Made by a program: the position numbers and the translations under genes. 64,000 nucleotides of DNA, taken from Candidatus Omnitrophota bacterium. GTDB taxonomy: Bacteria > Omnitrophota > Gorgyraeia > Zapsychrales > JANLHA01. The DNA lies in assembly GCA_022711395.1 (NCBI GenBank), contig JAKLFA010000002.1, forward strand, positions 387,864 through 451,863, in the 5' to 3' direction. Shown here in pieces: positions 25,959-31,470 of the stretch (its first letter is position 1; each line of letters starts with the position of its first letter). The notes beneath the pieces were generated by a model, which saw only the letters and a list, made by a program, of their open reading frames with translations, was not told the origin of the DNA and made no database searches.

Positions 25959-27095
25959 CTAGAATTGAATGCCTGTTTTAAGGCCAAATTCCCAGGTCCG
26001 GTTGTTCGGCTCAAGCCCGCACATGTCAACCGTGCAGCCGGCGTTGGAATCCTTAATATGCCAATACCGGGTGAACGGTTCCACAACAAAATTCACGACC
26101 GGCGTTTCCTTAATGACCTTGATCGAACCCCGGTAGCCGTAACCTTCATTTTGGTCATTCTCCAGGGTCTCGCTATAGCCCGGGACATCCCCCAGATGGC
26201 TCCGCTGCTGCCCATCAACAAAAATGTCATACTCAAGATTAAAGACCGTCTTCCATCCCGCCTCAAAGGTGCGTTCAATATCGATCCCAAGCGGAATATA
26301 GACATACTGGGATTCCCGGTCATAGCTCCAATGGCCGGTCGTTGTCCGCTGTCCGCCGTTATCATCTTTCAAATAACGATACCCCAGCCCGGCGTAGGGC
26401 GTGAGCGTGATGTTCTTTCCCGACAAGGGATAATCCGCCCCGACGACCAGGCGCGTTTCATGCGCGAAATGCGTTTCATCCTCTTTCTCGCCGCTTCCTT
26501 CCGAACGGTATTTGATATCGCTCCCGCGGCTGTAGCGGCTGTCCAGGCGCAAAACGTTCAACCTTTCCACCCCGGAGAAGATCTCACCCAGCGAATTGAC
26601 CGGTTCATTCTCATGGAAACGGTGCGTGTAAACCCCGTAGACACCGATCATCGAACCATCCAGTTTCATGAAGCCCTCTTCCCGATATGTGTAATCAAAG
26701 ATCTCGGCCCCGACCTCGGCGCTATTAAGGGGGTTCTCCTTAAAATTCAAATACTGATAAGAAAAATTCTCCTTCGGGAGTCCCGCCGGCGCCGCAAAAG
26801 ACGCCGGTTCTTCATTGGAGGGCGCAGCCATCTCAGCCGGATCAGGCTCGACAGCCTGATCATCAGAACGGACAACGATCGGGTCGACTTTTACCTTGAC
26901 CGATGGCCTCCTCGCTTCCGGCGCGGCCGTGTCAAGCGCGCAAATATCCCGCTGATTGATCGCTCCCTCATCATAAAGCCTCTGAAAACAATCCAGGTTT
27001 TGCGCGATAACACCCTGGCGGTCTGAAGCCCCGGACGCTGAGGCGCCTATCAAGCACATGCCTAAAACGGCAAGAAGAGAAAAAATTTTTTTCAT
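25959..27095 (-). CDS. putative outer-membrane beta-barrel protein (paralog A)
   Basis: 378 aa. Signal peptide and C-terminal Phe. Alternating amphipathic strands. Shares a conserved approximately 250-aa C-terminal region with the next gene (TPYAGLGYRYLKDDNGGQRTTTGHWSYDRESQY...). Confidence 0.5.
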   Translation of the reverse strand: MKKIFSLLAVLGMCLIGASASGASDRQGVIAQNLDCFQRLYDEGAINQRDICALDTAAPEARRPSVKVKVDPIVVRSDDQAVEPDPAEMAAPSNEEPASFAAPAGLPKENFSYQYLNFKENPLNSAEVGAEIFDYTYREEGFMKLDGSMIGVYGVYTHRFHENEPVNSLGEIFSGVERLNVLRLDSRYSRGSDIKYRSEGSGEKEDETHFAHETRLVVGADYPLSGKNITLTPYAGLGYRYLKDDNGGQRTTTGHWSYDRESQYVYIPLGIDIERTFEAGWKTVFNLEYDIFVDGQQRSHLGDVPGYSETLENDQNEGYGYRGSIKVIKETPVVNFVVEPFTRYWHIKDSNAGCTVDMCGLEPNNRTWEFGLKTGIQF

Positions 27096-28364: not shown

Positions 28365-30008
28365 TTAACGGTCTTTCTTTTGCTCCCGCTGAAACCGCCG
28401 CTCCATCTCATCGACCTTTTTCTTCAGCTCCATGATCCGCTCTTCCCGCCCGATGCTCGCTTTAAAAAAGATCTCAAGTTCATGCAGGTGCTTTTTCGTT
28501 TCGTTCTCTGTTTTCGTTCGTAATTCAACCTCCTGGCGAAGCTGCTGCTCATTGGCAACCAGCTGCTGATTGATCGCTGTCAACTGCTGCTGGCTCGCCC
28601 GCAACTGCTGATTGGCCGCCTGAAGCTGCTGCTCACTGGCCTGGAGCTGCTGATTGGCCGCCATCAATTCCGACGTCCGGCTCTGGACCATCCGCTCCAG
28701 TTCCTCTTTCCATCCGCTCATCCGCTCCAGCATCGCGTTGAACTGCCGTCCTAAAAACCCGATCTCATCTTTTGAAAACTCGCTGATCCTCGCCGAAAGG
28801 TCCCCCGCCTGAGCGCGCCGGGCGACCTCCGCCATCCTTTTGATCGGGCGCACCAATGAGGAGGACAATAAATAAATCGCGATCATCCCCAGCAGCATGC
28901 CCAAAAACGTCACCCCTAAAGAATAAAAAAGATTCTCCCGGACAGGCCAAAAGACGTCATCAAAATTCTCCTTGACCACCATCCCGATCGACTCTTTATA
29001 CGAGATCGGGATGTTCCGATACGCGGCCAGAACTTTGACGCCGCGGTAATCCCTGCCCTCCAAAACCCCCTCTTCTCCGCTGGCCGCGCGCCGGGCCGGT
29101 TCTGCATTGATCGTGTATCCCAGGGGGACCGGCTTTGTCCCATCTTTGAGCGGAAACTTCAGCGGTGTTAAAATTCGCTGATCCTGGTTGACCAGAACAA
29201 CCTCTCCGCTCCGGCCCAGTCCCTTGGCCGCGTTCAGCATCGGTGACAAAAACGACCCTAAATTCACATAGGTCACCAAAAGCAGCTCGTCTTCCTTAGC
29301 CGGTTCATCACCCCGCGCGCCTTCACCCGTCACGGGGGCCGCCAGCAAAAAATCCCCGGCCCCTCCGATCAAATCGCACTGCCGGATCGTGACAAAAACG
29401 CCACCCTCCGTCAGATCGATCGAATTCAGCCGCGCATCAAGGATCTTTTTACCGTAATCCTCATCGTGCGGCGGGACAACAGCAAAGCCCGTGGAATTGT
29501 CAACGACCGTGAACCGGTGAAAGACATTGCCATACACTTGCTGGGCCTGATGCAAAAAGTTCCTCGACTCCTTATACGACGGTTCCTGGCTCAGCGCCTG
29601 CCAAAGCTCTTCTCCGCTTTTGCCTTGTTTCCGATACTCCTTCCGTAAACGGCTCAATTCCTGGAGGTTCTCTCTCAACAACTGGTTAGCGGCAATCGCC
29701 TTAACATCATATTTCCGCTCCAGAAGCCACGCCGTAATGTTGTCCTTCTGCAGATCCGCGATCACGGAAAAATTATCCAGCGTGTTTTTCTTGAGCACGT
29801 ATTGAACGCCTTCGAATCCCACAAAAGGGATCCCGTAAAGGCGCGCCCATTCCAAGGACATCGATCCTGCCAAAAAAAGAAGCCCGAACAGCGTTATCAT
29901 TTTTAAGCGCAAACCGAAGAATTTATCTCTATCCATGACTCCGTCCCCCTTTATAAAGCAATGCTTCTGTGCGGTCTCCTTCAGCGCAATAAACAGACCC
30001 GTCCTCAA
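28365..30008 (-). CDS. Cache-like periplasmic sensor / HAMP / coiled-coil protein without kinase or MCP signalling domain
   Basis: Two transmembrane helices flank an approximately 300-aa periplasmic region. HAMP (VRPIKRMAEVARRAQAGDLSARISEF...). Five tandem heptads follow: NQQLQAS/EQQLQAA/NQQLRAS/QQQLTAI/NQQLVAN. The true start is probably an internal Met near 29930-29960, because the ORF overlaps cheD. Confidence 0.6.
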   Translation of the reverse strand: MRTGLFIALKETAQKHCFIKGDGVMDRDKFFGLRLKMITLFGLLFLAGSMSLEWARLYGIPFVGFEGVQYVLKKNTLDNFSVIADLQKDNITAWLLERKYDVKAIAANQLLRENLQELSRLRKEYRKQGKSGEELWQALSQEPSYKESRNFLHQAQQVYGNVFHRFTVVDNSTGFAVVPPHDEDYGKKILDARLNSIDLTEGGVFVTIRQCDLIGGAGDFLLAAPVTGEGARGDEPAKEDELLLVTYVNLGSFLSPMLNAAKGLGRSGEVVLVNQDQRILTPLKFPLKDGTKPVPLGYTINAEPARRAASGEEGVLEGRDYRGVKVLAAYRNIPISYKESIGMVVKENFDDVFWPVRENLFYSLGVTFLGMLLGMIAIYLLSSSLVRPIKRMAEVARRAQAGDLSARISEFSKDEIGFLGRQFNAMLERMSGWKEELERMVQSRTSELMAANQQLQASEQQLQAANQQLRASQQQLTAINQQLVANEQQLRQEVELRTKTENETKKHLHELEIFFKASIGREERIMELKKKVDEMERRFQREQKKDR

Positions 30009-30459
30009 TATTCAGCCAGGCGCTGCGCCGGATCACGCCCCCCACGGCCGTCTCCATGACCCTGATCCCTTCTTGCTTGAGGATCTCCGTGACCGAATCG
30101 ATGAGAGCGCGGCACAAGGTGTCATTTTCATCCTTGAGGACATTTCCCCCTCCGATAAGGCAGGCGGTCATATCCTCCGCGACAGAACCTAAACGCTTCA
30201 TTTTAAAAAGCAGGTCATCGATGGCGTCTTGCGCGTATTTCCGGTTCGGCATGAACCCGCGGTTCGCCGACTTGCCCGGAAGCATGATGTGCCCCAATCC
30301 GCCGATCATCCGCTTAGGGTCATGGGCGGCCACAACGACGCATGATCCGATTCCGTCCGAGCGCAGGATCACTTTTTGGGACGTGACCCAGACCTCTCCC
30401 GTGGCCACGGGAATCACCGCTTTCCTCCCTGCCGAAAATTGTCCGCGGTTCCCGATCAT
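29929..30459 (-). CDS. cheD: chemoreceptor glutamine deamidase CheD
   Basis: 176 aa. GIGSCVVVAAHD...GLGHIMLP matches the CheD catalytic Cys and His region. Confidence 0.8.
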   Translation of the reverse strand: MIGNRGQFSAGRKAVIPVATGEVWVTSQKVILRSDGIGSCVVVAAHDPKRMIGGLGHIMLPGKSANRGFMPNRKYAQDAIDDLLFKMKRLGSVAEDMTACLIGGGNVLKDENDTLCRALIDSVTEILKQEGIRVMETAVGGVIRRSAWLNIEDGSVYCAEGDRTEALLYKGGRSHG

Positions 30460-31131: not shown

Positions 31132-31470
31132 ATGATTCAAATCAATCTTTCACAGCGCGACATCATCGTCTTATTGGCCATTATAATGATCATTTGCGCT
31201 GCCCCTGTGATCGCCCAATACTGCATCCAGGATCTTTCGGCACTGCCAGAAGGAAGTCAATTGCCGTATTCATTGGCTGGTTACTGCAAACAAACTCTTA
31301 TCGCCGATGGGGAGACTACCGTAGGATGCTCCGGCAGTTTTCCCGCGACGTGTTCACCTTGCGGCTGCACAAGCGGCTACACACTGGTGAGAACCGGTTC
31401 ACATTTTGTCCCAAACTCGCCCACAACACAACTCAGCGCCAAATTTTTTTCCTGCATGAAAAACCCGTGA
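31132..31470 (+). CDS. small secreted cysteine-rich protein (paralog 2)
   Basis: 112 aa. Same signal peptide, Cys spacing and C-terminal CMKNP. The upstream promoter region is conserved with paralog 1 (CGCCCTTTACA...GATAAACTTTAAAAA). Confidence 0.6.
   Translation: MIQINLSQRDIIVLLAIIMIICAAPVIAQYCIQDLSALPEGSQLPYSLAGYCKQTLIADGETTVGCSGSFPATCSPCGCTSGYTLVRTGSHFVPNSPTTQLSAKFFSCMKNP

Follow-up and report, generated by a model that had tools for sequence, protein, structure and literature searches.

Introduction

Covalent modification of signalling helices, namely deamidation of Gln and methylation of Glu, is regarded as a hallmark of the chemotaxis receptors as opposed to the two-component sensors. 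[quoted passage not shown] The modification sites can follow a regular spacing, as in Tsr, where sites 297, 304 and 311 are seven residues apart on methylation helix 1 (PMC1079850). CheD also binds a receptor-like helix of CheC, which is not an MCP (PMC3513319). In this work, we have analysed a stretch of 64,000 nucleotides (hereafter the window) from a Candidatus Omnitrophota bacterium (contig JAKLFA010000002.1), where a cheD gene overlaps the gene of a transmembrane sensor that carries tandem Gln-Gln heptads in its cytoplasmic helix. The two genes constitute a two-gene module. A preliminary description, made from the sequence of the window, took the heptads for a CheD substrate outside the chemoreceptors, and this central intuition is well supported by the comparative genomics reported here.

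Results

The heptad array has the form of chemoreceptor modification sites

The heptads of the window sensor have the form [N/E]-Q-Q-L-x-A-x. The five heptads recognised in the preliminary description are all present, but a sixth, EQQLRQE, is also there. All 12 Gln of the six pairs are encoded by CAG, and in a six-frame translation of the window this is the sole in-register run of at least three QQ[LMIVF] heptads. At the DNA level, the units have only 10–16 of 21 bases in common (48–76% identity), and Tandem Repeats Finder gives a period of 21 with 2.5–3.3 copies and 72–74% matches. The near-perfect DNA repeat that had been placed at about 28555–28680 is therefore not borne out, and the array really lies at 28530–28655, some 25 nt away. 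Given this low identity between units, a recent tandem duplication or a contingency repeat was rejected. That is, selection acting on the protein upholds the periodicity, and recent duplication does not.

We have further collected 109 heptads from 15 CheD-linked proteins, and their consensus is [N56/E38]-Q109-Q109-L107-[R47/K20/Q17]-A104-[S43/A25/N16]. Both this consensus and the window heptads agree with the chemoreceptor modification consensus [E/Q]-[E/Q]-x-x-A-[S/T], with the sites encoded as Gln pairs, just as first read. Chao et al. are said to have given, in 2006, a T. maritima CheD consensus of A/S-x-x-Q/E-Q/E-x-x-A/S, and every heptad would fit it. Judging from the sequences, the array appears to be a head-to-tail series of the chemoreceptor site motif, written in the amide form.

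The larger set tells the same about the Gln pairs. Among 1,423 heptads in 192 arrays of 122 proteins (3–27 heptads per array), 94.5% have QQ and 1.5% have EQ, while QE and EE account for ~0.1% each. In MCPs, Glu predominates at the modification sites. Since Gln is kept and Glu is almost never encoded in the arrays, the pattern fits the amide as a substrate. In addition, we have assigned the heptad register by hand, by extending the hydrophobic pattern from the HAMP AS2 helix. With this assignment Leu would take a core position, and the nearly invariant Ala (104/109) would stay outside the core in either register, which suggests, as far as a hand-assigned register allows, that it is recognised by a protein such as an enzyme and does not serve packing.

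CheD of the window keeps the catalytic residues

The CheD of the window matches Pfam PF03975 with 56 bits (cut-off 25) and T. maritima CheD (2F9Z) with E = 2.8e-16. Its Cys40, His57 and Ser34 align with Cys27, His44 and Thr21 of the T. maritima triad, and the Ser in place of Thr is also seen in the homologue NTAN1. Six members of the subfamily were aligned, and all of them have this Cys and this His, with Ser or Ala as the third residue. A homologue search with this CheD yielded 12 matches and no new architectures. A metagenome scan with the CheD alignment yielded 5 loci, most of them too short. In two of them, L090 and L091, the same gene can be seen to begin downstream before the contig breaks off.

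CheD is linked to the array across loci

Where the preliminary description had a single adjacency to build on, we have found cheD beside a gene with a Gln-Gln heptad array (Q-array), on the same strand, in 15/15 distinct loci (the window, L001, L002, L003, L006, L008, L009, L010, L013, L059, L089, L095, L097, L099 and L100). The two genes overlap or are at most 60 nt apart in 12 of them, and the distances in the other three are 535 nt (L006), 759 nt (L008) and 1,452 nt (L059). Three of the loci, L013, L059 and L089, are independent finds.

The proteins that carry the array are of many kinds. The window sensor family, with cheD directly upstream, recurs in L001, L002 and L003–L005. A different dCache-HAMP sensor has cheD upstream in L006/L007 (Scalinduaceae), and cheD is again directly upstream of a multi-transmembrane sensor in L009 and L010, of a HAMP-only sensor in L013 and of a PilJ sensor in L095. 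For the PAS sensor of L097, cheD is directly downstream. Histidine kinases are also among them: L089 has cheD followed by a HAMP-array-PAS-HisKA kinase, and cheD is again directly upstream, in L099 and L100/L101, of two Q-array HisKA_2 kinases (P0033 and P0025) that were chosen regardless of context. Finally, in L008 (8451–12071, 1,206 aa) and L059 (4557–6767, 737 aa) a CheD domain is fused to 4–5 PAS domains and a C-terminal tail with the GREERI motif (see below). In both loci a separate Q-array protein is encoded 0.8–1.5 kb upstream on the same strand, and it ends in a variant tail, …MVDRELRIIELKKEVN…, with the pattern …MNKFMVDRE[LM]R[IV]I[ED]LKKEVN[KR]LC…. Overall, the outputs of the CheD-linked array proteins comprise tail type 1, tail type 2, a HisKA_2 kinase and a HisKA kinase.

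A fairer sample is provided by 78 non-redundant loci (702 kb) that were chosen by the tail motif alone. Eight of them have both CheD and an array, none has CheD alone, none has an array alone, and 70 have neither (Fisher p = 4.3e-11). These counts indicate that it is the array with which CheD is associated, rather than the tail, HAMP, PAS or a particular sensor. The genes of MCPs, CheA, CheW, CheR, CheB and CheC are absent from every annotated CheD locus. On these sequence comparisons, the link between CheD and the array is strongly supported as a general one.

It could be argued that the Q-heptads serve as nothing more than a polar structural linker of the coiled-coil type, widespread in these phyla, and that CheD is linked to these loci otherwise, by modifying the kinase, the tail or another protein. 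The arrays do sit at inter-domain linker positions like generic signalling helices, and their sequence resembles designed coiled coils (a search of the PDB with the C-terminal 112 aa of the window sensor returned nothing else, with E > 0.3). The CheD-PAS-tail fusions, moreover, tie CheD to the tail network without an array of their own. We hold this explanation to be improbable, since the ~70 tail loci that lack an array also lack cheD, while an array protein accompanies each cheD and a Q-array protein is also encoded close to both fusions. In addition, a coiled coil would not call for an exact match to the modification consensus, with its invariant Ala outside the core and the S/A after it.

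Three side observations concern these loci. Response-regulator and KaiB-family genes (L097:117–801) are found directly upstream of the PAS-Q-array-tail gene. On the short contig L096, two Q-array-plus-tail genes stand in tandem (1–177 and 237–1571), the second with an SBP_bac_3 sensor and 10 heptads, and one CheD may serve several array proteins. A domain of ~110 aa, …KELDCLYGLSQLVE…PEITCARV…DEGPFLKEER…LAERLG…, recurs in P0016, P0025, P0028, P0031, P0033, P0035, P0069 and P0126 (e.g., L099:10001–11722). It is flanked on both sides by Q-arrays in CheD-linked kinases and in a PAS-array-tail protein, and the precomputed lists contain no Pfam match for it.

The window sensor is not an MCP

By sequence, the periplasmic domain scores only 19 bits against Pfam dCache_1, below the 45-bit cut-off. 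In the full-length AlphaFold2 (AF2) model, whose predicted local distance difference test score (pLDDT) is 78.8, this domain is confident, and Foldseek against the PDB matches it to the dCache domains of PctA, vpHK1S-Z8 and DctB (E = 1e-7 to 1e-13). On the predicted fold, the Cache-like reading of the preliminary description is confirmed, and the protein should be a dCache-HAMP transmembrane sensor, with the periplasmic fold between two transmembrane helices and HAMP behind them. From HAMP AS2 onward the model is one single long helix, which would presumably form a parallel coiled coil in the dimer.

No MCP signalling domain and no kinase domain had been noticed in this protein, and the profile searches agree. 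The sensor has no match to MCPsignal (PF00015) in Pfam at E ≤ 0.01, the NCBIfam MCP equivalogs match its HAMP region only and far under their cut-offs, and neither Pfam nor NCBIfam finds a HisKA/HATPase (DHp plus HATPase_c) domain in it. For the orthologues, the precomputed Pfam annotation gives HAMP alone. The antiparallel hairpin of methylation helices 1 and 2 (MH1/MH2) is not seen in the AF2 models of the window sensor either. Of the properties that define an MCP, the sensor thus has the site motif alone, and lacks MCPsignal, the hairpin and the context of che genes.

The sensor might still be an MCP that has lost its signalling hairpin by truncation or frameshift. Its dCache-HAMP front is that of many MCPs, the best Foldseek matches of the model also include the B. 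subtilis McpB and McpC models, and the heptads resemble methylation helix 1. This explanation can be regarded as effectively refuted. The orthologues (41–84% identity, from several genomes) agree in length and in their conserved C-terminus, the tail family counts at least 2,404 clusters that end alike, MCPsignal is not matched, and the gene of an unrelated signal-peptide protein follows 84 nt downstream. A truncated, frameshifted or pseudogenised MCP was therefore rejected. As for a cryptic hairpin, the full-length AF2 model has low-confidence breaks around aa 478–497. With an alignment of 70 sequences, however, AF2 folds the last 76 residues into one continuous helix with a pLDDT of 96.6, which indicates that no hidden MCP hairpin follows the heptads.

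A conserved tail follows the array and is tied to a kinase class in relatives

After the heptads comes a conserved helix of ~50 aa, …HLHELEIFFKASIGREERIMELKK…. The tail, …KKHLHELEIFFKASIGREERIMELKKKV…, is conserved throughout the orthologues and also in proteins whose N-terminal sensors are unrelated. The motif of this tail family is …HLxELExFYKAxxGREERIxELKKx…. The window protein matches the hidden Markov model of the tail with E = 4.7e-28, and the match ends 5 residues from its C-terminus. Neither Pfam nor NCBIfam has a family that covers the tail. Our profile, on the other hand, retrieves at least 2,404 cluster representatives (50% identity) with E ≤ 1e-3. The tail is at the extreme C-terminus in 150/150 among the matches listed and in 79 genome loci, and most of the proteins are PAS-type sensors with neither another output domain nor Q-heptads. 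A His of the tail (KHLHEL) was considered as a phospho-acceptor and rejected, as neither His is invariant.

We have then scanned the open reading frames (ORFs) next to the tail genes with Pfam, which took over from a BLAST clustering of neighbours that was dominated by one PAS/kinase super-cluster. Of the ORFs directly 3' of a tail gene, 35 of 53 encode a HisKA/HATPase kinase, and dCache is present in 29 and HAMP in 28 of the 53. Usually, the output-less tail sensor is 20–30 nt upstream of a dCache-HAMP-HisKA-HATPase kinase (e.g., L015:6163–9042, L017:6155–9073 and L023:6162–9041; L014–L089). These kinases share a helix, strongly conserved and placed just before the H-box, …E(I/V)MxSMLEDNNxIRExLEKSLxELK…. 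Of the 62 tail loci whose flank extends to 2.5 kb or more, 38 have its SMLEDNN motif 3' on the same strand, and the opposite strand has none throughout the 702 kb. It is also present in the CheD loci L001 (~10299), L002 (~9587), L006 (~10586), L013 (~8004) and L089. In L002, the kinase encoded downstream of P0006 has 933 aa. The tail sensor and the SMLEDNN kinase look like an undescribed pairing of accessory sensor and kinase, and both helices are absent from Pfam. We infer that the tail proteins are accessory sensors whose C-terminal helix engages the SMLEDNN kinase class. By analogy with these relatives, the conserved tail would be the real output of the window sensor, at variance with the earlier view that the heptads are its only output.

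That view had led to the proposal of a sensor-gated decoy or sink that draws CheD off the chemoreceptors, or of a switch that releases ammonia. It is true that the array mimics an MCP modification site, that CheC provides a precedent for a CheD binder mimicking the substrate, and that the window protein has no enzymatic output domain. Nevertheless, no MCP or che gene is present in any CheD locus examined, and the arrays look like true targets rather than chemotaxis decoys. The CheD-adjacent arrays also occur inside complete histidine kinases, between sensor and DHp, a position in which they must belong to the signalling path, and the tail tied to a kinase class supplies an output. A decoy, sink or ammonia switch is very unlikely on this evidence.

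The gene pair and its surroundings

The features of the window are collected in Table 1. The sensor was first described as a protein of 547 aa, which is the listed ORF from a TTG, and as overlapping cheD. The overlap is real, though it amounts to 8 nt and not to ~80 nt. From the ATG at 29936 the protein opens with MDRDKFF…, similar to the MNKENFF… of its orthologue P0001, and a purine-rich stretch is found just 5' of this ATG. Since the N-termini of orthologues and the gene calls agree, the sensor most likely has 523 aa. For cheD, an alternative start 14 codons 3' of the ATG is possible. The short overlap implies that CheD and the sensor are co-expressed by translational coupling, and the two genes likewise overlap or abut in L001, L002, L003, L009, L010 and L097. 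The nearest database relative of the sensor, P0002, is partial and 100% identical, and comes from a Candidatus Omnitrophota metagenome-assembled genome. The orthologues P0001 and P0003–P0006 share the length and the ends of the window sensor.

Table 1 Positions of the gene pair, its parts and other features in the window
Feature	Position	Strand	Remarks
cheD, CheD-family glutamine deamidase homologue	29929..30459	-	176 aa from ATG; first gene of the pair
Sensor gene, 523 aa	28365..29936	-	First transmembrane helix, dCache-like domain, second transmembrane helix, HAMP, Q-heptad array, C-terminal tail
Overlap ATGGATAG, 8 nt	29929..29936	-	cheD stop TAG overlaps sensor ATG; sequence read directly
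Periplasmic dCache-like ligand-binding domain	29004..29780	-	Weak by sequence, fold match by Foldseek
HAMP domain	28719..28871	-	PF00672, 56.5 bits, E = 3.6e-15
Six heptads NQQLQAS EQQLQAA NQQLRAS QQQLTAI NQQLVAN EQQLRQE	28530..28655 (aa 428-469)	-	Putative CheD binding/deamidation array
Conserved C-terminal tail VELRTKTENETKKHLHELEIFFKASIGREERIMELKKKVDEMERRFQREQKKDR, 54 aa	28368..28529	-	Putative docking/output helix
Outer membrane protein (OMP)-like signal-peptide protein, 390 aa	27108..28280	-	Directly 3' of the sensor gene
OMP-like signal-peptide protein, 378 aa, paralogue of the preceding	25959..27095	-	
Small Cys-rich protein, 108 aa	30650..30976	+	Divergent, upstream of cheD
Small Cys-rich protein, 112 aa, paralogue of the preceding	31132..31470	+	Divergent, upstream of cheD
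Protein of 1,340 aa	48066..52088	-	Centre phosphoglucomutase/phosphomannomutase-like; ~440 N-terminal and ~400 C-terminal residues without assignment
ORF of 2,643 aa	53732..61663	-	

Around the pair, the Pfam scan took in most large ORFs between 20.1 and 52.1 kb. It has found housekeeping genes, a PAS histidine kinase, a GAF-HD protein and a T2SSE ATPase, and no che or MCP gene among the genes scanned. The two OMP-like paralogues have weak, sub-threshold matches to the Autotransporter beta-domain. They are kept in the close relative L003–L005 but not in more distant CheD loci, and a Tex gene comes after them. The Cys-rich pair has a hydrophobic N-terminal segment and no family assignment, and a 106-aa ORF occupies the same place in L003–L005. 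Scanning for promoters and terminators gave nothing beyond the shuffled expectation.

Discussion

Based on the above analyses, we think that the array is probably a dedicated binding and deamidation target of the co-translated CheD, placed inside a signalling helix. The signal would start with a periplasmic ligand acting on the dCache domain, and would run via HAMP into the long coiled coil. There, CheD would bind the Gln pairs and most likely convert Q-Q to E-E, as it does on the methylation helices of chemoreceptors. The new carboxylates would be at i+3/i+4 from the conserved Arg/Lys of heptad position 5 and near the alternating Asn/Glu of position 1, and this might shift helix stability, register or inter-helix packing, and in turn the bias or gain of the passage from HAMP to the tail. 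The C-terminal helix could then be presented differently to a partner SMLEDNN histidine kinase, if the analogy with the relatives holds. Since neither CheR nor CheB accompanies the system, the modification should be one-way. It may belong to maturation, or it may be a setting that is written once, depending on the signal, and erased by nothing but protein turnover.

As the main rival we consider a CheD that is no enzyme here but a stoichiometric partner of the Q-array, and whose binding and release regulate the helix, much as its binding activates the B. subtilis receptors, because in that organism binding outweighs deamidase catalysis in the function of CheD (PMC3513319). Translational coupling suggests near-stoichiometric synthesis of the two proteins, and the gene linkage is equally compatible with binding or catalysis. 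On the other hand, all six aligned members keep the catalytic Cys and His, with Ser or Ala at the third position, and 94.5% of heptads have Gln in both places, as a substrate role of the amide would predict. In CheC, which only binds, the equivalent site is a Glu (PMC3513319). Binding without catalysis is therefore rather unlikely in our opinion.

Several points weigh against deamidation of the array as we have proposed it. The deamidase activity of this CheD subfamily is a prediction from sequence, and the B. subtilis case means that binding alone could suffice. The NCBIfam CheD equivalogs stay under their cut-offs (best 83 versus 240 bits), and this large shortfall shows that the subfamily is divergent. 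An irreversible modification with no reverse enzyme has no obvious adaptive logic. The whole 64-kb window contains no SMLEDNN kinase, and for this reason the output step of the window protein rests on its relatives. Finally, all sequences come from metagenome-assembled genomes and the loci cover only parts of them, so that MCP or che genes elsewhere, as well as Q-arrays without an adjacent cheD, are possible.

If CheD does modify the arrays, tuning of the adaptation or memory type would extend beyond the chemoreceptors, and CheD genes outside che clusters would have a function. One small enzyme and one helical peptide would also make a testable model for how the charge of a coiled coil sets kinase output. 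A bolder suggestion, which we put forward only tentatively and consider somewhat doubtful, is that CheD and the Q-arrays form a chemotaxis-independent covalent layer on two-component signalling in Omnitrophota, Planctomycetota and neighbouring phyla, where up to dozens of Gln pairs in the signalling coiled coil of sensor kinases and accessory sensors would be converted irreversibly, to an extent set by the signalling state, and the array would act as a multi-step, write-once memory or timer of past stimuli. Apart from CheD, the analysis exposes a large uncharacterised family of output-less sensors with a conserved end helix, encoded upstream of a distinctive class of kinases.

Comparison with known systems

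The pairing of MCPs and CheD in B. subtilis and T. maritima shares with the present system the PF03975 enzyme with its Cys/His triad, a motif that recurs every 7 residues after HAMP, and sites encoded as Gln. The target here, however, has neither the MCP signalling domain nor the MH2 return helix, and is found outside the context of CheA, CheW, CheR, CheB and CheC. MCPs have 3–6 scattered sites which are mostly Glu, whereas these arrays have 3–27 perfectly tandem sites which are almost all Gln-Gln. Without CheR, moreover, modification here would be irreversible, unlike that of MCPs. In E. coli Tar and Tsr, an encoded Gln is likewise a neutral state, resembling methyl-Glu, until it is deamidated. 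There the enzyme is CheB and the resulting Glu enters reversible methylation, while no methyltransferase is linked to the present system.

CheC is similar in that a non-MCP protein offers a receptor-like helix to the active site of CheD (PMC3513319). It is a CheY-P phosphatase with a single Glu mimic site, whereas the proteins described here are sensors or kinases with many Gln-Gln sites and no CheC-like domain. The S-helix linkers of sensor kinases also form a parallel coiled coil that transmits the signal from a sensor or HAMP to the output, but no modification motif is repeated in tandem along them, and no enzyme is dedicated to modifying them.

A further likeness emerged from a query with an array of NEEL heptads, which returned the fragments P0262–P0315, named 'two-component system CheB/CheR fusion protein' by JGI, several of them with PAS_10. 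These fusion proteins, like the present system, combine a receptor-modifying enzyme with a tandem array of N-E-E-L-x-S/T-x sites in a non-MCP protein with PAS. Their sites are Glu, and methyltransferase and methylesterase are fused to them, though this likeness rests on the annotation names of short fragments. We know of no experimental work on these arrays. They suggest that, in parallel, methylation enzymes are also paired with tandem arrays of sites outside the MCPs.

The literature searched, whose coverage is incomplete, yielded no account in which CheD acts on, or is linked with, arrays or kinases of this sort or the tail family. The closest analogues are CheC and the NEEL-heptad arrays of the CheB/CheR fusions. 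Here, the enzyme family and the motif of the chemoreceptors are dedicated to non-chemotaxis sensors and histidine kinases, with no chemotaxis partner nearby. Overall, we class what we have found as a CheD-type modification system re-targeted to two-component sensors.

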